From a virus (Duplodnaviria > Caudoviricetes): a DNA stretch of 62,833 nucleotides. The notes beneath the pieces were generated by a model, which was not told where the DNA came from, searched no databases, and worked only from the letters and a program-made list of their open reading frames with translations. How positions within the stretch are numbered: the stretch's first letter is position 1; each line of letters begins with the position of its first letter. This document shows positions 2,251-38,077 of this stretch, one piece after another. The position numbers and the translations under genes were made by a program. Location of the stretch: IMG/VR virus record IMGVR_UViG_3300010413_000029, positions 1 to 62,833 of that record, one strand, 5' to 3'.

Positions 2251-3354
2251 TCAACCTATAAATCCTTGACGCAACCAAGCACGAACCCTATCTAAGAACG
2301 ATTTCGGCCAGGGATAATCCACCGGATAATGCTTGTACGTCCAACCAATGTTAGGAGCACCCGGGGGAAGTTTCCACGGAGCGATGTACACGCGCCGATC
2401 ATCCATATCACCATGCAGGGCAGGGGTATCATAGCTTCCACGAATGAGCATCTGGTCAAGCAAATACCACTTTCCATCAACAAGGCCATAGACATCACTA
2501 CCACTGAGCCATAGTTTTTCAATCGTGACTTCCACGCCTTCGTTGGCATCAGGGGTGCGCCAGGCATTATCAACTACCAGACTATCTCGATACAACTTGG
2601 CAACAAATGGAGGCCTCGGGAAAAAAGCAATCTTATATTGTTCTATGCCAACCAAAGGAACCTCCGTATACTCAGGCACTTTATTTTTGACCACTACAGG
2701 GAATTGAACACGACCATTTCCACCCACAGCGCCACGATCATTGAGGATGTTGTAATCACGACTGGCAGTCGATGATACCAACACCTGAGTATGGAACAAG
2801 TGCGGGTCTTTGGTGGGATTGAGACTTTGGTCAACAGGCTTGTCATAATCCTGAGCCTGCACCAATGAGAACCGCTGTCCACCAGATACAATCGTATCCA
2901 ATTCACGTACTACATCACAACCCAAGAAAAGACAATACAAACGCGTGTCACCATGATCCATAAAGCCATAGCCGTCTCGCTGGAAACGAGCAAAGACTGT
3001 ATCGCCCATCAACTCACGCATCTTGGTTTCCCACCCTGTCCCAAGCACCTCTACCACAGGCTTGCCCTTACAACGATAGGCTCCATCCTTGTAATAAAGC
3101 TCATTGCCAGGTTGAATCATATTGGTGAACTGAATCTGAATCTCTTCCAGTTTGGTGCGAGATTCCCCGTAGAGGTAAGCATCATCCCAAATACGACCAA
3201 AGCGACCCACAGTATCAGGGCCATACTCTGTGCCTTCTGGTAGGATGTCTATGGGGTCAGGTATTCCACCACTAGGAGGGGGTGTTGTCTCAGGGACTAA
3301 TGTGGCATCACTGCCATCATCAAAGTGAACAACAAATTCAGTTGTCTCAGCCAT
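2251..3354 (-). CDS. Hypothetical protein co-transcribed with the endolysin
   Basis: 367-aa ORF 2 bp after the endolysin stop; N-terminal FDDGS/TTPPP motifs shared with the endolysin C-terminus. Confidence 0.7.
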   Translation of the reverse strand: MAETTEFVVHFDDGSDATLVPETTPPPSGGIPDPIDILPEGTEYGPDTVGRFGRIWDDAYLYGESRTKLEEIQIQFTNMIQPGNELYYKDGAYRCKGKPVVEVLGTGWETKMRELMGDTVFARFQRDGYGFMDHGDTRLYCLFLGCDVVRELDTIVSGGQRFSLVQAQDYDKPVDQSLNPTKDPHLFHTQVLVSSTASRDYNILNDRGAVGGNGRVQFPVVVKNKVPEYTEVPLVGIEQYKIAFFPRPPFVAKLYRDSLVVDNAWRTPDANEGVEVTIEKLWLSGSDVYGLVDGKWYLLDQMLIRGSYDTPALHGDMDDRRVYIAPWKLPPGAPNIGWTYKHYPVDYPWPKSFLDRVRAWLRQGFIG

Positions 3355-13478: not shown

Positions 13479-13634
13479 ATTTGCTCTCCTCAAAAATAAA
13501 CAGCCGCCTTCTACTTTTCGCTGACTGTTGTCACACAGGCCAAGGCTTTAGTAGAAAAGCGGCTATTTATAGCGAAACAAAAAGCCTTCCTGTGTGACAA
13601 GATTTATTTTATCACATGTAAGGCCATTAGACAA
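13479..13634 (-). ncRNA. Promoter plus structured self-complementary leader RNA
   Basis: TTGTCT-17-TAAAAT; 5' element 13600-13581 is complementary to 13549-13528 inside the stem 13568-13550 / 13515-13498; then U-tract and RBS. Confidence 0.65.
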
Positions 13635-22780: not shown

Positions 22781-24242
22781 AAATCTTGCTATTCATACTG
22801 ATCCCATCCCCAACATCAGACATATGCCCAAACAACTTTTCGATGCGTTCCACCTGCACTCGCAACTCAGCATCATTCGGTCTACTATCCAACTCATCCT
22901 TGTACTGTTGCAGGTCAAACACATCCCACGGCCACAAGGGTTGACCGGGGTTGTCATGCCCCTCCAGAAACAGGATACCTCGAATATTCAACGCCCAACT
23001 AAAACCAAGCGGCGGGTCTGGAAGTTCCAATCCATCAGGGGGGTCAAATGACAATCCAGAAATTCCACTATTCTTGGGAGACTTCCCACCAAATGGGATC
23101 TGTGCAAAACTTGAGTTCTGGACAGGAGCAGATGCAACCTGCTTATCAAACATAATCAAGCCATTGTCTGCTGCATAACTAAGCATGGCCACAATCCCAT
23201 TATTGGCATTGCCAGAGTTCTGCATATCCTTGAACACAGGTGAGGGGTCTTTGGTCAATGGGGACTGGTCAACAGGAATGGGAGCAAATATCTCATTGGG
23301 AGCATTCCAACCAGCCACGCTATCAAGCACCCCAAAGCCAACACACAAGTCAGGGGATACTTTCAAATTCACACTAACATCCACCTTGTTTCGCGCCAAT
23401 GCCTGCTGATACAAGGGCTGTCTTCCTTTCTGGATACCAGGGGCTTTCAACCATTGCCCATTAGCAGGGAACGGAATCTGTGCCCCTTTGAAGCTCACTC
23501 GCGCAGCCTTCCAATCCCCAACAAGGTCATCAGTTGTGAACACAACAGGAAAGTTCACAGCAGAATGAGCATTTTTCTTGTGGATCAGGGTGCAATAGCG
23601 TAACCCATCCAGAGCAAAGGCAAACACAACCGGGGAGTTCGGATAGTTGTGCTTGAGCGAGGCATATACCGTGATTTCACCAGGGACCAACGAGCCTTTG
23701 TGGTCAGGGTGGTCCATCATGGTAACATCCTTCTTACAAAACACCCAGTCGCCCTTGAGAGCAAAAGCGCCCTTCTGGAATGGGTCAATGCCAGTCAATT
23801 CCTTGCCCCAAGCGGTGAACCATCCTCCATATTTAGCGATCTCGGAACCATGAGTCGGGTCAATCTCAACCAGGCCAGCCTGCTCCACACTGGGCGGGAC
23901 AAACTGGTTGTCATTGCTATAATCAAAAGTCAAAACAAGTTCTATATCGTGTGGCATTTGTTCTCCTACTTTATCAGACATTTGAAAAACGTCCTGAAAC
24001 AAGGGGTCGGATGAACCCCATCGACCTAAAACCAATCGCTCATAATCAGTGGCTTGCCTCATCAAAGAGTACTTGATAGCATCCAAACTATCAGGGTCAA
24101 AAATAGTAGGACTATCACAATAAGTACTGGCAAAAATTGGTTCATCTGGATTGAGAACCATCTTGCGAAATGACTCCATAAGCTCAGAGTCATTACAAAG
24201 TTTCTCGTACTCATCAGGGCTAAGGGATGGGGTCACTGGCAA
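22761..24242 (-). CDS. Hypothetical protein
   Basis: 493-aa ORF; start uncertain. Confidence 0.65.
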   Translation of the reverse strand: MPVTPSLSPDEYEKLCNDSELMESFRKMVLNPDEPIFASTYCDSPTIFDPDSLDAIKYSLMRQATDYERLVLGRWGSSDPLFQDVFQMSDKVGEQMPHDIELVLTFDYSNDNQFVPPSVEQAGLVEIDPTHGSEIAKYGGWFTAWGKELTGIDPFQKGAFALKGDWVFCKKDVTMMDHPDHKGSLVPGEITVYASLKHNYPNSPVVFAFALDGLRYCTLIHKKNAHSAVNFPVVFTTDDLVGDWKAARVSFKGAQIPFPANGQWLKAPGIQKGRQPLYQQALARNKVDVSVNLKVSPDLCVGFGVLDSVAGWNAPNEIFAPIPVDQSPLTKDPSPVFKDMQNSGNANNGIVAMLSYAADNGLIMFDKQVASAPVQNSSFAQIPFGGKSPKNSGISGLSFDPPDGLELPDPPLGFSWALNIRGILFLEGHDNPGQPLWPWDVFDLQQYKDELDSRPNDAELRVQVERIEKLFGHMSDVGDGISMNSKIFGGSYE

Positions 24243-24291
24243 CTCCTGATAGTCACGCTATTCTCCAAAGCTACCAGCAACCCCATGTCAC

Positions 24292-28064: not shown

Positions 28065-29555
28065 CTACGGTAATCTACTCGCATGGCTCGGCCTTTGCGC
28101 ATTGGGAGCATACGGTTTATCGGTGAACCATTGTGCAACCAAGTCATAATCCCACAGGGTGGGGGTGAAACGATTGCCATCTCTGTCTTTCATAATCCAG
28201 ATGCTAATCTTGAGATTCTTCGCACCAACCAACTGCTGGTTGACTTCCGGCATCAAGACTAACATCACATCCGTAACATGCTTGATCTGCCTTGCCCACG
28301 GAATGGCATTCAAATCTGGCAATTGATTCTTCTGCCCATTGCCATTCATGGCCTTCTGGTTTCGCTTGAAGAACTCAGCAGACTCATCCGGTGAAATGGC
28401 ATGCACCACTCCACAGGCACAATCATATTTGTTCGCAATAGATTTCAACATCGTGAAGTTGTGCAACATATTGACGGTCTTGTTCTGTCCCCCATCTTCC
28501 TCAACCTGATTGATCTGATCTACCACGAATAAGGCAGGGCGATGCAAACGAACTGCTCTCTCGATCTCACGCAGGTTGGTAGCCCGCGAGTTAAACTTGA
28601 GTCTGCCACCATACTTTCCCTGGTATTCATTTACAATAGCATCCCGCAAATCTTGCTGCTCCTGCGGTGTAAGCTTTCCACTTCTAACCTTTTTCCCATT
28701 CACATGGGCAAGTCCAGCAACTCGCCGTAGGACATTCTGCTTATTGGTGGACTCAAGCCCAAAATAGAGTGCCTTCTTTCCAGCCAACGCAACCTGCTCA
28801 CATACTTGCAACCACCATGCGCTCTTTCCAAATGAACTATCCCCGATCATGAGCGTGGCACCAATGGGCAACCCACCCAAAGCATCGGTGTGGTCAAATT
28901 CTGGAAAGCCAGTCATAATTCCAGTCGGATTGTTATTGTCAATATCGATCAATAGATCAACACTGGCCTCGTCGCTATCCTCTGTGTCATCATCCTGAGA
29001 GTAGTTGACATCCTCCCTTACAACCAACTTGTCATACTTTGAAAGGGTGGTCTCAATATCACAACTTTCATCATAACCCAACGCAGCTATTTCATTGGCC
29101 TTAGCAATCAGTTTTCTCCTGACAGAATGAGCCTCAATAATTCTGCCATAAGAGAGAATGCTTGCTACATCCAAGGTCGGAATCCCAGTTGCAACCGTAA
29201 TCAAGGCTGTCAGGTAAGCAGGACCACCAATATCAGCCAATTGACCTAATCCATCCAACACATCACTGATAGTCATAATGTCAACTACCCTGCTAAAGTC
29301 CAAACAAGTCTGCATCGCCTCCCAAATCCAGCGATGCCGATGGATGTAGAAGTCATCAGCTTTCAAGAACTCAGCCACATCGGGGTAAAACTGCGGATAG
29401 ATCAAGAGGGCGCCCAAAAGTAACTCCTCCGCCTCCCGTGAATGCGGAATACTCAGAAAGGTAGGAGGCTCCTCAGGTTGGTCAATCTCTGGAAGGATGA
29501 AATCATCAAAAGGGTCATCAAGTGGCGCTGGGGGTGGCAGGTTCGGTGCAGTCAT
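28065..29555 (-). CDS. dnaB: DnaB-like replicative helicase
   Basis: PHSREAEE.LLGALLI, DDFYIHRHRWIWE, TGI.TGF..FD...LGGL, Walker A GDSSFGKS, KDRDG. Confidence 0.85.
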   Translation of the reverse strand: MTAPNLPPPAPLDDPFDDFILPEIDQPEEPPTFLSIPHSREAEELLLGALLIYPQFYPDVAEFLKADDFYIHRHRWIWEAMQTCLDFSRVVDIMTISDVLDGLGQLADIGGPAYLTALITVATGIPTLDVASILSYGRIIEAHSVRRKLIAKANEIAALGYDESCDIETTLSKYDKLVVREDVNYSQDDDTEDSDEASVDLLIDIDNNNPTGIMTGFPEFDHTDALGGLPIGATLMIGDSSFGKSAWWLQVCEQVALAGKKALYFGLESTNKQNVLRRVAGLAHVNGKKVRSGKLTPQEQQDLRDAIVNEYQGKYGGRLKFNSRATNLREIERAVRLHRPALFVVDQINQVEEDGGQNKTVNMLHNFTMLKSIANKYDCACGVVHAISPDESAEFFKRNQKAMNGNGQKNQLPDLNAIPWARQIKHVTDVMLVLMPEVNQQLVGAKNLKISIWIMKDRDGNRFTPTLWDYDLVAQWFTDKPYAPNAQRPSHASRLP

Positions 29556-29564
29556 TCAGTTCTC

Positions 29565-30479
29565 CTAGGTAGTTATATTGCCAAAATCAAAGGGGGCAAA
29601 GCCAGTCTCAGGGTCGATCTCAACAGGGACATTATTGGGATTGTTCGCAGGAAAGGCTTCAGGATAGGCCTCGATCATTTTGTTCGGGTTCCAGAACTTC
29701 ATCGAGAAATTGTCATCCTCAAACAGGTAGCGCATGAACACATGCAAGTGTCTTCCCTTCGTCTGTTCCTGCTCATCCACAAAACGATAAAAGCTCTCCC
29801 ACTTATTGAAGCTCACCCGAGTATCCAAAATAGCACAAAACAACTCATGGATTTCCTCAAGCCTAGTAGACTTCTTTACCCCGGGTTGCATTCGCAAAGC
29901 ATTCATCCACCCTTCAATGGGATCTCCACGCTTGTCTTCACTTTCTACAATGCGTTGTCTATCTTGTTCTAAAGTTTTTGAAAAATCGTCCTGCTCTACT
30001 TTTTCTTTATTCTTTTCTTTATTCTTTGCTTCATGTGGTGAGTAACCTCCTTCACCTGATGATGTACCTCCTTCATGTGGTGAAGGCTTCATGTCATGAA
30101 GGGTCTTTTTGAACTCTATTCTAGACTTGATAGATAGATGACTTTCAGCCCATTCAATATTCTTACCCCATAAATCAGGAATAGATAAATGCCAAACAGG
30201 TTGGGGATATCCAGGGTCTTTTCTAACTTCCCCTTCAAGAAAGCCAAGTGAAATCCAATAGTTACGACAATCCACTACTTTTCCAATGGACATGCCACTC
30301 AAAGCAGCTAAATCTTCCGTTGATAAAAAGCATTCACTAGAATCACCTGCTACCTCTTTTATCGTATCCCATAAAGAGTAATCATAAGGTGTCCTACTAT
30401 AATATTTCACAATGCGAGGGTTGATCGTGAAATATTTTGCATCACGACTTTTATCTCTTATTTTGTTTTGATCACTCAT
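29565..30479 (-). CDS. Phage replication initiator protein
   Basis: N-terminal wHTH-like region (CFLSTEDLAALSGMS), internal repeats, immediately upstream of DnaB. Confidence 0.7.
   Translation of the reverse strand: MSDQNKIRDKSRDAKYFTINPRIVKYYSRTPYDYSLWDTIKEVAGDSSECFLSTEDLAALSGMSIGKVVDCRNYWISLGFLEGEVRKDPGYPQPVWHLSIPDLWGKNIEWAESHLSIKSRIEFKKTLHDMKPSPHEGGTSSGEGGYSPHEAKNKEKNKEKVEQDDFSKTLEQDRQRIVESEDKRGDPIEGWMNALRMQPGVKKSTRLEEIHELFCAILDTRVSFNKWESFYRFVDEQEQTKGRHLHVFMRYLFEDDNFSMKFWNPNKMIEAYPEAFPANNPNNVPVEIDPETGFAPFDFGNITT
29995..30102. repeat. Putative replication origin (iterons plus AT-rich tract)
   Basis: CTTCA-N4-TGA units at 30029, 30050, 30071 and 30087, next to a pyrimidine/AT-rich tract inside the initiator gene. 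Confidence 0.6.
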
Positions 30480-30841
30480 GATGCACCTTTTTTAGAATTG
30501 CATTTCTTACATAATGTTTGAAGATTGGATAATTCTAAAGTCCCACCTTTTACCTCTGGATAAATATGATCTACAGTCAAGTTTTTTCTTTTTCCACAAT
30601 GTCGACAAGTGAAATTATCTCGCTCCCATACTTCCCACCTAATTTTTGCAGGTATAATTTCTTTCTTGTAAGATGATTTTTCTTTTGGCCTATTTTGTTC
30701 ATCTTGATATTCTTGATATGCTTCCTGTAAATCTTTTTTCAATATTTCAACAAAATTGGGCCTAGCATCAATATCCTCAAGGCAGAAAATTGCATCACCA
30801 AGTCGTCTAACCCTATTATGTAGAGTTTCTAATAATTCCAT
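30476..30841 (-). CDS. HNH endonuclease
   Basis: VWERDNFTCRHCG...LTVDHIYP..KGG....NLQTLCKKCNSKK. Confidence 0.9.
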   Translation of the reverse strand: MELLETLHNRVRRLGDAIFCLEDIDARPNFVEILKKDLQEAYQEYQDEQNRPKEKSSYKKEIIPAKIRWEVWERDNFTCRHCGKRKNLTVDHIYPEVKGGTLELSNLQTLCKKCNSKKGAS

Positions 30842-31055
30842 AACAAACTCCTAACCCAGATACAAAAATCCCTTTCAAACTTTGATAACGGCTCAGGCAA
30901 CACAGGCTTTGATTACATCGGTGGCTTCCGATAGAACCTAAGCCGTTATCAAAATCCAAAAAGGATTGATATTTTGCCCGTGTTTTGCGCTTTTGTTTAG
31001 CGGTAGCCAGCCGCGCGCCTAAACATATTCTAAAGGATGTTCACGATTCTGTCAA
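30842..31055 (-). ncRNA. Promoter plus c4/CI-like structured leader RNA
   Basis: TTGACA-17-TAGAAT; hairpin loop CUGGCUA complementary to loop AAGCCA; AACACGGGC complementary to GCCUGUGUU; long closing stem UUUUGAUAACGGCU/AGCCGUUAUCAAAG; U-tract; AGGAG. Confidence 0.65.
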
Positions 31056-31181
31056 ATGGGATTTCAAAAAATCAATCACCAATTTTCCATCAACAATGGC
31101 ACACTCATAATCATTATTTGGTAAGTATCCCTTGACAACAAGTAGAACATGTGATAACATGTAGTTGTTAGGAGATACACG

Positions 31182-32081
31182 ATGACCACAAAGACCCGCA
31201 AACAACCCAAAAGCCCGATGCAGAAATTCACGCTCAAAGACTTTCAACAGATGTTCCCTGATGACGATACCTGTCTGGATTACATCATGAGCCAGAAATA
31301 CCCTGAGAGAATCGATTGCCCTCAGTGTGGACGCAATAGCATTTTCCATCGTGTGACTGGTCGCAAATCCTATGCCTGTGATGGGTGCGGGTATCACATT
31401 GCTCCTACCGCTAATACCGTATTCCATAAGTCAAGCACCTCCCTGACCATTTGGTTCTATGTCATTTACTTGATGGCACAAACGCGCGGCGGTATTTCTG
31501 CAAAGCAAATCCAGCGCGAGACGGGCGTTACTTATAAGACAGCCTGGAGAATGTGCAAGGAAGTACGCGAAGTTCTTTTTGAAGATCACGACCCAATGAG
31601 CGGCGATGTAGAAATGGATGAAAGCTATTTTGGTGGCAAGTCTCACGGCAAGCGCGGGCGTGGTGCTGAGAATAAAACCGCAGTATTTGGAATGGTAGAG
31701 CGAAACGGGAAGCTCGAAGCGCGAGTAGTTCCCAATTGCCAGCGCAAGACCCTTTTCCCGATTGTGACGGATAATGTTGAACAGGGTACACAAGTTTACA
31801 CGGATGAATTCAACGTTTATCAGACCTTGCCCGCGATGGGATACAAACACGGGACGGTTCCACACGCTGAAAAGGTTTATGTTGTAGGCAATGCTCATGT
31901 CAATACAATCGAGGGTTTCTGGTCACAGTGCAAGAATGGTATTCGCGGCGTTTATCATTCGGTGAGTGCAACCTACTTACAACACTACTTGGATGAGTAC
32001 GCATTCCGCTATAACCATCGCAATGATGTTACTCCGATGTTCCTGACTTTTCTTTCGCGGGCGATTTCTCAATCTTCTTAG
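31182..32081 (+). CDS. IS1595-family DDE transposase
   Basis: Zn ribbon CPQC/CDGC, GISAKQIQRETGVTYKTAWRM, VEMDESY, YTDE, NTIEGFWS, YLDEYAFRYN. Confidence 0.95.
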   Translation: MTTKTRKQPKSPMQKFTLKDFQQMFPDDDTCLDYIMSQKYPERIDCPQCGRNSIFHRVTGRKSYACDGCGYHIAPTANTVFHKSSTSLTIWFYVIYLMAQTRGGISAKQIQRETGVTYKTAWRMCKEVREVLFEDHDPMSGDVEMDESYFGGKSHGKRGRGAENKTAVFGMVERNGKLEARVVPNCQRKTLFPIVTDNVEQGTQVYTDEFNVYQTLPAMGYKHGTVPHAEKVYVVGNAHVNTIEGFWSQCKNGIRGVYHSVSATYLQHYLDEYAFRYNHRNDVTPMFLTFLSRAISQSS

Positions 32082-32970
32082 CAATCACTTTGTTGAGTGA
32101 TTTCAAGAAGTCTTCTTTAGTGAAAACTTCCTCTTCGGAGGAGGTTTTTTGTTGTTTCTTTTTGGGTTGTTTATCTTTCATATTTTTCTCTTTTCCATCA
32201 ATTGAAATGTTTCCATCGGGCATTATATGTATACTTATTGTCTTTATCGGTAAAACTGTTTTTTCGTTATCTAATTCCATGTGGCTTATTATTTCAACTT
32301 CAATCACTACCTCAGGCGTTATTTGATTTTCTTGAAAAGGCCATTCAACACCGTTTTCTTTCGGTACTGTCATGAATTTATAAACCGTAGATGGGTTTTC
32401 TAATCCTGTTATAGCAAAATCTTTGCTCTTCCCGTGTTTGATACTTTTATCTTCATCATAGAATCCCATGTTTTGATTTTCATAATCAATAATTGGAAAA
32501 TAATATGCTTTTTTTACTTCCCTAAATGAAAAAATATCTTGATTTACCCTTCTAGTAATCCAGCGAACTTGTATCCTATCTAAATCAAATATCTTGTCAT
32601 TTGTGATTCTCAACGCATAACCAGAAACACCAACAATATGATATGGAACTTCGTCAAATCTAACCAGGCTCCAATTGTGCTTTGACAATACAATCTTTTT
32701 TTCCTCATACAAGACCTCGTTGGCGTGAATATAGGTTCCTATTGCTATTATCACGAACCAAATCAAGCCTGATATAGCAGCTACAATTTTTACAAAAATA
32801 TCATCTATTGCAATATCAACAGAACCGCCATAAAAAGCTATTAGAGGACCTACAAGAGCTACAACAATGCTTGTCACGGTTTGTTTCCAATCACCCCACC
32901 CAAACCACGATTTAATTTCGTCCCCCCAAATATGTCTAATTTCTTCCCAATATGTTGTTTCTCTTTCCAT
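32029..32970 (-). CDS. IS passenger: two-TM membrane protein with soluble C-terminal domain
   Basis: Two hydrophobic segments, AT-rich, inside the IS ends. Confidence 0.7.
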   Translation of the reverse strand: MERETTYWEEIRHIWGDEIKSWFGWGDWKQTVTSIVVALVGPLIAFYGGSVDIAIDDIFVKIVAAISGLIWFVIIAIGTYIHANEVLYEEKKIVLSKHNWSLVRFDEVPYHIVGVSGYALRITNDKIFDLDRIQVRWITRRVNQDIFSFREVKKAYYFPIIDYENQNMGFYDEDKSIKHGKSKDFAITGLENPSTVYKFMTVPKENGVEWPFQENQITPEVVIEVEIISHMELDNEKTVLPIKTISIHIMPDGNISIDGKEKNMKDKQPKKKQQKTSSEEEVFTKEDFLKSLNKVIAKKIEKSPAKEKSGTSE

Positions 32971-37945: not shown

Positions 37946-38077
37946 TATAATCAGATTGTTCAGGTCGTGCGGTAGAAAAGCCGATTTTGTTTTATAATCA
38001 AGAATACTCCGCTTGCCCCGTATGACCTGAACAATCAGACGGCTTTGGCTTGCGGAGTTTTTATTTGGAGCAACCTT
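37943..38077 (+). ncRNA. Promoter plus self-complementary leader RNA
   Basis: TGATATAAT; 37954-37972 pairs with 38018-38036 (19 bp, 2 G-U) enclosed by stem ACTCCGC/GCGGAGT plus U-tract; second TATAAT at 37993. Confidence 0.65.

Follow-up and report, generated by a model that had tools for sequence, protein, structure and literature searches.

The locus in front of the replication genes of this virus raises the question of what kind of RNA it encodes and of what that RNA does to the genes behind it. The window (the whole stretch of DNA that was analysed, 62,833 bp) is a complete virus record with direct terminal repeats at its ends, and on its minus strand a leader RNA of about 160 nt precedes the genes for an HNH endonuclease, a DnaD-like initiator and DnaB (Table 1). 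An earlier note on this DNA had likened the leader to the two-element antisense RNA c4, or to CI, and had suggested RNA-based control of the operon, possibly acting as immunity.

The identity of the operon is partly as that note had read it: the HNH and DnaB genes are recognized by Pfam and PHROG, while the initiator is DnaD-like through its relatives only. The 304-aa protein itself matches neither Pfam nor PHROG, and PF07261 and the source name “DnaD/phage-associated family protein” occur in some of its 45 homologues. Other PHROG matches in the genome include Erf, SSB, terminase, portal and endolysin. Integrase, repressor, antirepressor and partition genes were not found among the 79 ORFs scanned of the 83 called (the other four were scanned separately); with no integrase, repressor or partition gene among those 79, the suggested immunity role is unsupported. 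The sole pointer to a host comes from the initiator family, for which all four matches in a genome collection lie on contigs of Chloroflexota metagenome-assembled genomes (MAGs), so that the hosts are likely Chloroflexota, judged from sequence.

Everything that had been drawn at the leader itself could be found again, with corrections to its stem and to one helix. The near-consensus promoter, the single-stranded element b and the U-tract with an RBS ahead of the operon are all present on the minus strand. The hairpin with loop CUGGCUA exists too, in a clamped form that is an alternative of nearly equal energy rather than the predicted minimum: as first drawn it folds at -10.0 kcal/mol, 0.7 kcal/mol above the minimum free energy (MFE) structure of the 5′ segment (-10.7 kcal/mol), in which the loop is partly paired. 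A UAG followed by a 5′ GCGC-type hairpin can also be read in four relatives (L006, L008, L026 and L057). The closing stem, put at 14 bp, really has 31–32 consecutive pairs with zero mismatches, six of them G:U. Both announced complements, a′ and b′, are displayed in the domain that this stem closes; element b pairs with b′ over 9 bp (AACACGGGC/GCCUGUGUU), and a with a′ over 5 bp only (UGGCU/AGCCA). The U-run sits 25 nt ahead of the first start codon. In a variant contig of the window's own sample, both promoter hexamers and their 17-nt spacing are kept, and the spacer and upstream sequence differ.

Table 1. Coordinates of the leader and of the operon that it heads, in positions of the window
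Feature	Position	Strand	Basis or remark
Sigma-70-type promoter, TTGACA-17-TAGAAT	31027..31055	-	Consensus scan, 11/12 matches; RNA start predicted near 31020
5′ hairpin module, GCGC/GCGC clamp around GCGG/CCGC hairpin	30987..31018	-	Sequence and folding
GCGG/CCGC hairpin with loop CUGGCUA	31014-31000	-	Element a = 31010-31004
Element b, single-stranded AACACGGGC	30976..30984	-	P(unpaired) 0.80
Long stem, 5′ arm	30937..30967	-	Folding, inverted-repeat and stem scans
Apical domain, 39 nt	30898..30936	-	Small hairpin 30932-30917 plus b′
Element a′, AAGCCA	30927-30922	-	6-nt loop of the small apical hairpin
Element b′, GCCUGUGUU	30907-30899	-	Abuts 3′ arm of long stem
Long stem, 3′ arm	30867..30897	-	Folding, inverted-repeat and stem scans
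U-run UUUUUGU (run of 5 U)	30862..30868	-	Foot of stem; putative intrinsic termination point
RBS AGGAG (30853-30849) and ATG (30841-30839) of HNH gene	30839..30853	-	Sequence
HNH endonuclease gene, first of the operon	30476..30841	-	Pfam HNH_5/HNH; PHROG HNH families
Putative replication initiator/organiser, 304 aa	29565..30479	-	DnaD-like via relatives only
DnaB-type replicative helicase	28065..29555	-	Pfam DnaB, DnaB_C; phrog_19

The fold stands out from chance (z = -3.77; none of 200 shuffles folds as well). With a score of 32, against 20 for the next best on either strand, its long stem is the strongest in the whole 62.8-kb genome, where block shuffles yield three to six stems with scores of at least 16; the leader region is single-copy. 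In the predicted terminated RNA, element a is unpaired with a probability of 0.56 (its loop being half-paired across the ensemble), b with 0.80, a′ with 0.99 and b′ with 0.77; the duplex energies are -15.6 kcal/mol for b:b′ and -6.9 kcal/mol for a:a′. Taken in the window alone, the complementarity signal is modest: of 30 non-cognate pairings, one reaches the 9-bp b:b′ helix and three reach the two-helix sum. The stem is followed directly by a run of five U, as in an intrinsic terminator, termination itself being a prediction. As a terminator it is atypical, with its 31-bp stem, 39-nt apical domain and a foot rich in A/U and G:U pairs, and a consensus terminator scan, which permits loops of 3–8 nt only, did not flag it.

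No Rfam 15 family matches the window at its gathering score. Between 30780 and 31120 we found six matches at E values up to 10, all far below the gathering score (four microRNA-precursor models, two of them at E < 0.1, one snoRNA and one PYLIS), which we judged to be spurious hairpin matches. None of them is C4, and the proposed membership in the c4/CI family is thus not borne out.

An IS1595-family copy occupies the plus strand at about 31120-32143, 65 nt upstream of the leader promoter and transcribed divergently from it; its transposase (31182-32081) has the Pfam DDE_Tnp_IS1595 domain and its zinc ribbon, and its borders near 31120 and 32143 were set by contig ends and loose ends in run X1. 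Two alleles of the copy occur in that run, which makes the IS multicopy in this sample. The 3′ end of the copy runs into the stop-proximal part of an ORF at 32029-32970, and no plasmid matched the IS region by blastn. On the other side, variant contigs of run X1 have the leader in common and diverge directly past the U-run (30859 and downstream on the minus strand), so that the first gene of the operon, here HNH, seems exchangeable between strains. In two relatives, L056 and L057, the first gene is a different one, encoding a small Cys-rich protein.

For comparison we assembled the loci that carry relatives of the initiator (50 metagenomic, 2 viral and 4 genomic), plus two loci found via DnaB. 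By sequence the leader has no detectable relative among these loci, as blastn against all of them gave chance matches only. A search with the single initiator protein found no relative among viral contigs, and tblastn and blastn against a phage collection found no match. The same layout, without sequence similarity, is present in 15 further loci, with a promoter, two 5′ elements, a stem, a U-run and an RBS; their stems of 21–33 pairs enclose 21–72 nt just 5′ of the first gene of the operon, and the tip complements the 5′ elements. The resulting set of 16 elements comprises the window, L004, L006, L008, L015, L021, L026, L029, L030, L034, L039, L044, L048, L050, L053 and L057. Duplicates were dropped, namely L007 (the same as L006), L056 (the same as L008), L017 (near L015), L032 (near L023) and L060 (near L059), and stems with scores of 16 or less were left out (L019, L022/L023, L037, L038, L043, L045, L047, L051, L054 and L055), as shuffles reach such scores and we judged them to be noise. 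L059 and L060 were also left out for their different, interleaved layout: in these contigs of Caldilineaceae and Dehalococcoidales MAGs, the leader before the initiator gene (775-932 in L059, 483-640 in L060) has a TTGACT-17-TATACT promoter and then a pair of long interleaved stems, with 28 pairs in the first and 21 in the second; the latter ends in seven T, and its 5′ arm lies within the loop of the former.

Position, promoter and terminator-like end are shared across the set. In 51 non-duplicate loci, the density of long stems is 0.244 per kb over the 1.5 kb upstream in the sense direction and 0.035 per kb elsewhere, and 7 of the 12 matches elsewhere are antisense images or the same element lying just past 1.5 kb. 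Among the 38 relatives with at least 600 nt of upstream sequence, we retained an element in 15, and 23 have no clear long stem. A promoter with at least 9 of 12 matches lies upstream in 14 of the 16 elements, ending 10–98 nt before the stem; likewise 14 have a T-run of at least four at the 3′ end of the stem, and the next ORF mostly begins 5–80 nt on. Over all 16 stems we count 365 Watson–Crick pairs, 50 G:U, 10 A:C and 27 other mismatches, or 49 G:U against 5 A:C without the bulged L004, the source of five A:C. This excess of G:U over A:C indicates that the structure is selected as the sense-strand RNA of the operon and not as DNA. Two related loci have tandem promoters (L048 at 60-160, L050 at 1255-1350): TTGACA-17-TAGAAT starts the full leader, and from a second promoter, TTGACT-17-TATACT, whose end lies 10 nt short of the long stem, only the hairpin would be transcribed. 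The hexamers of this second promoter are identical in the two loci, while 8 of its 17 spacer bases differ. The whole records of three relatives (G003, G004 and G001) hold one element each and no second one; a match of 14 nt in G003 falls within coding sequence and was taken as chance.

Complementarity between the 5′ elements and the stem tip was scored as perfect helices between the 5′ 100 nt and the apical loop, a measure that replaced an RNAduplex energy matrix, which proved too noisy. For the best helix, cognate pairings of the 16 elements average 24.3 and non-cognate pairings 17.3 (sd 3.0); for the sum of two helices the values are 42.0 and 31.2 (sd 4.7), and in neither case did any of 20 000 permutations reach the cognate mean. 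Control segments from the same loci stay near background: positions -200 to -101 against the apical loop score 17.9 (cognate) against 16.9, so the two-site signal is not an effect of composition. Downstream, the apical domain has no significant cognate complementarity to the next 100 nt (17.8 against 16.6; reached by 1472 of 20 000 permutations), and the 5′ leader has none to the next 45 nt (1790 of 20 000).

Close pairs reveal how the two sites change. Between L056 and L057, which have 82% identity, most of the differences fall in b and b′; L048 and L050 differ by two double substitutions in a:a′, a wholesale swap of b and b′ and nine compensatory pairs in the stem; and in the variant contig of the window's own sample the small a′ hairpin is re-registered through compensatory changes, a:a′ growing from 5 to 6 bp. 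By our own reading, the complements stand in parallel order in nine elements, in nested order in five and in an unclear order in two. Their order thus differs between lineages, which speaks against any single cis fold. By the same kind of reading, UGGC in the 5′ partner and GCCA in the apical partner recur in 8 of the 16 elements, which suggests common descent with drifting specificity. In the short helices G:U and A:C are nearly equal (37 and 39), and wobble pairs do not tell the strand there. Strict loop–loop pairing is clear in only 5 of the 16 elements (175 of 20 000 permutations), and we rejected the idea that loop–loop kissing holds throughout. The structural and comparative claim as a whole we hold with high confidence.

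One relative adds a further feature. Past the terminator of L057, at about 3035-3062, a second a-like and b-like pair complements the apical loop by 8 bp each; this is the only downstream target set of the c4 or P4 kind that we saw, and the close relative L056 is without it.

Elsewhere in the genome of the window, a second element of the same architecture (13496-13634, minus strand) heads an operon that continues to the terminase and portal genes. It has a TTGTCT-17-TAAAAT promoter with a TG extension (13634-13606), a 5′ segment that complements the apical loop in helices of 12 and 8 bp (scores 30 and 19), a 43-nt loop closed by a perfect 16-bp stem, then UUUU, GAGGAG and an ATG at 13493; its fold z is -4.61. 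AAAGCCU and GCCUGUGU are common to its apical loop and to b′ of the main element, which makes cross-pairing over 7–8 bp possible. The cross-pairing scores of the two elements, 37 and 35, lie about one sd above the background of 31.2 (sd 4.7) and are suggestive only. Two other stems were noted. At 37954-38036, on the plus strand and just 5′ of a gene starting at 38045, a perfect 19-bp stem encloses a 45-nt loop, with no U-run and no cognate complementarity to the upstream 100 nt. On the minus strand, a hairpin of 22 pairs and a loop of 14 nt (24227-24286) separates the SSB gene from the gene that follows; AGGAG and the start region of ORF 24242 fall within its 3′ arm.

Control of the replication operon by RNA, as the earlier note had it, is also our best reading and a likely one, judged from a sense-strand RNA with co-varying complementarity. 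For its form, we propose with moderate confidence that the leader is an untranslated RNA of the replication operon which acts as a transcription attenuator controlled by RNA pairing; a hairpin and U-run directly before the RBS have the shape of an intrinsic terminator, which makes an attenuator the simplest reading. Transcription would start near 31020 and deliver a, b, the 5′ arm, a′ and b′, the 3′ arm and the U-run in that order. Before the 3′ arm exists, a and b may pair in cis with a′ and b′: when partial transcripts that stop short of the 3′ arm are folded, the MFE structure contains one cognate helix or more in 15 of the 16 elements, with all nine pairs of b:b′ in the window, while folds of the full transcript favour the long stem. 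In the window, 8 nt separate the end of element b from the stem foot, which b abuts in L008, and b′ lies at the tip. A 31-bp A-form stem is about 87 angstroms long, so on geometric grounds b:b′ and the fully closed stem should be unable to coexist. Pairing of b with b′ in cis would then delay closing of the terminator foot, and the polymerase would read through into HNH, initiator and DnaB.

A second, less certain step is offered tentatively, again as a model. Terminated transcripts would settle into the long hairpin with a, b, a′ and b′ exposed, and such free leader RNAs could pair in trans with nascent leaders, block their cis pairing and raise termination, giving a dose-dependent shut-off of the replication genes as phage genomes accumulate. 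This trans role is supported indirectly, by the usual placement of one partner in a hairpin loop, by the fast and concerted change of the recognition sequences and by the promoter for the hairpin alone in L048 and L050. A more ambitious version, which we think unlikely, makes the terminated leader RNA a self-recognising sensor of copy number. With a and b at the foot and a′ and b′ at the tip of a rigid stem of about 87 angstroms, no pairing would occur within one folded molecule; pairing would instead join two molecules in antiparallel fashion, or a free RNA and a nascent leader, and shut the operon off like a switch. The concerted change of a with a′ and b with b′ would then mark mutually blind specificity groups, an RNA-only heteroimmunity among Chloroflexota phages, and the second element at the terminase and portal operon would belong to the same circuit.

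The foremost competitor to feedback in trans is a purely cis attenuator, in which another factor (a protein, polymerase speed or nucleotide pools) sets the antiterminator and the released leader is functionless; we regard it as a serious minority prospect. The cognate helices in the partial-transcript folds of 15 elements suit it, as do the nested order in five lineages, which fits a simple alternative fold, and the single element in each of three relatives' whole records. Against this, the parallel order in nine lineages needs a cis pseudoknot, the placement of one element in a hairpin loop is the usual design for fast bimolecular recognition, the conserved second promoter of L048 and L050 would make the hairpin alone, and the recognition sequences change quickly and in concert, like specificity determinants.

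The long duplex could also serve RNase III processing or mRNA stability, being cleaved to mature or stabilise the operon transcript as happens at the processing sites of phage T7; the complementarity would then be incidental. The 31–32 uninterrupted pairs exceed what a terminator needs, and the stems are long in all relatives that have the element, but this proposal leaves the co-varying two-site complementarity and the conserved U-run unexplained, and we consider it improbable as a full account. Such cutting could coexist with an attenuator and release the apical domain.

Phage P1 c4, to which the leader had been likened, is a tRNA-like stable RNA of about 77 nt that is released by RNase P processing; its short elements a′ and b′ find their matches, a and b, in unchanged order on the transcript that carries them, and the target copy overlaps the RBS of the downstream gene. 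What c4 controls is an antirepressor operon within an immunity region. The a/b versus a′/b′ logic ascribed to our leader survives in part: here too, at the head of an operon, two exposed elements, accessible at the apex according to the folds, are complementary to two others on the same transcript, and this complementarity is conserved and co-varies in relatives, but no RBS is targeted. A free-standing trans-acting antisense RNA of the c4/CI family, about 100 nt long and blocking a target on the operon mRNA with its loops, is very improbable. The leader matches neither RF01695 (P1/P7 c4) nor any other Rfam family, there is no cognate complement near the RBS or in the 100 nt downstream, the genes behind it are for replication and not an antirepressor operon, and the closing stem with its U-run, a hairpin of about 100 nt that is terminator-like where c4 is tRNA-like, resembles a terminator or attenuator and not a free-standing antisense gene.

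The inverted repeat adjoins replication genes and an IS copy, as might a DNA-level feature (a replication origin, a cruciform, protein-binding inverted repeats or a miniature transposon), but the strand-specific stem wobbles (50 G:U against 10 A:C), the single copy in the genome, which rules out a miniature-transposon origin, and the conservation of position relative to promoter, U-run and RBS while the sequence is not kept make any such feature a most improbable explanation. Least probable of all is an ordinary terminator with chance complementarity. It is favoured by the window's two-helix score, which 3 of 30 non-cognate pairings reach, but disfavoured by a family-wide signal that none of 20 000 permutations reached and by concerted changes in close pairs (L056/L057, L048/L050) and in the window's variant.

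Among known systems, our proposed attenuator with RNA pairing is best set beside those that decide termination in a leader. In pT181 and in pIP501/pAMbeta1, a countertranscript from the opposite strand contacts the leader and decides, in a dose-dependent way, over a terminator before the rep gene. The likeness lies in the proposed RNA–RNA contact in a leader that decides a terminator just before a replication gene; the difference is that here the complementarity lies within one strand and the partners meet the apical loop of the terminator, not its arm. A consensus scan found no plus-strand promoter-like site within 30842-31020. The relatives' leaders have no detectable sequence in common with that of the window, which itself matches no Rfam family, and we see no riboswitch-like conserved ligand-binding core.

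Phage P4 offers the nearest parallel. Its CI RNA derives from the leader of the replication operon and, by pairing with complementary stretches of that transcript, makes transcription terminate early; one element has targets both upstream and downstream (seqA, seqB and seqC), and processing releases the RNA (PMC4825925). As there, a putative same-strand regulator lies here within the untranslated leader of a replication operon, and pairing would decide termination. Our leader differs from P4 CI in its pair of elements, which have partners only upstream (downstream complementarity is missing except in L057) and are presented at the apex of a long hairpin resembling an intrinsic terminator. We found no sequence or Rfam relation between the two, and the hosts here are likely Chloroflexota, not enterobacteria. 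By this analogy the proposed logic is closest to P4 CI rather than to P1 c4. The same source describes IsrK of Gifsy-1, a relative of P1/P7 c4, with a partly read-through terminator and a short form that acts in trans on the read-through form (PMC4825925), a duality of short and read-through forms that we propose here as well. A terminated attenuator leader with a second life as a trans regulator is described for rnTrpL (PMC7968998), and our terminated leader RNA may likewise act again in trans. The targets of rnTrpL-type RNAs are other genes, and the attenuators from which they come respond to translation or to ligands, whereas the target proposed here is the leader itself.

Our full-text literature searches found no description of such a leader. 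The family provides a natural set of orthogonal RNA–RNA recognition pairs on a terminator, a format that is sought for synthetic transcription regulators, and its 16 elements form a comparative data set for asking how pairing with a terminator loop may control termination. If our reading of the leader as a pairing-controlled attenuator holds, these leaders would be an undescribed class of phage riboregulator, outside all Rfam 15 families and in phages of a poorly studied host phylum. If true, it would also mean that RNA-only, same-strand control of replication, known from P4, exists beyond enterobacterial satellites, on a different scaffold.
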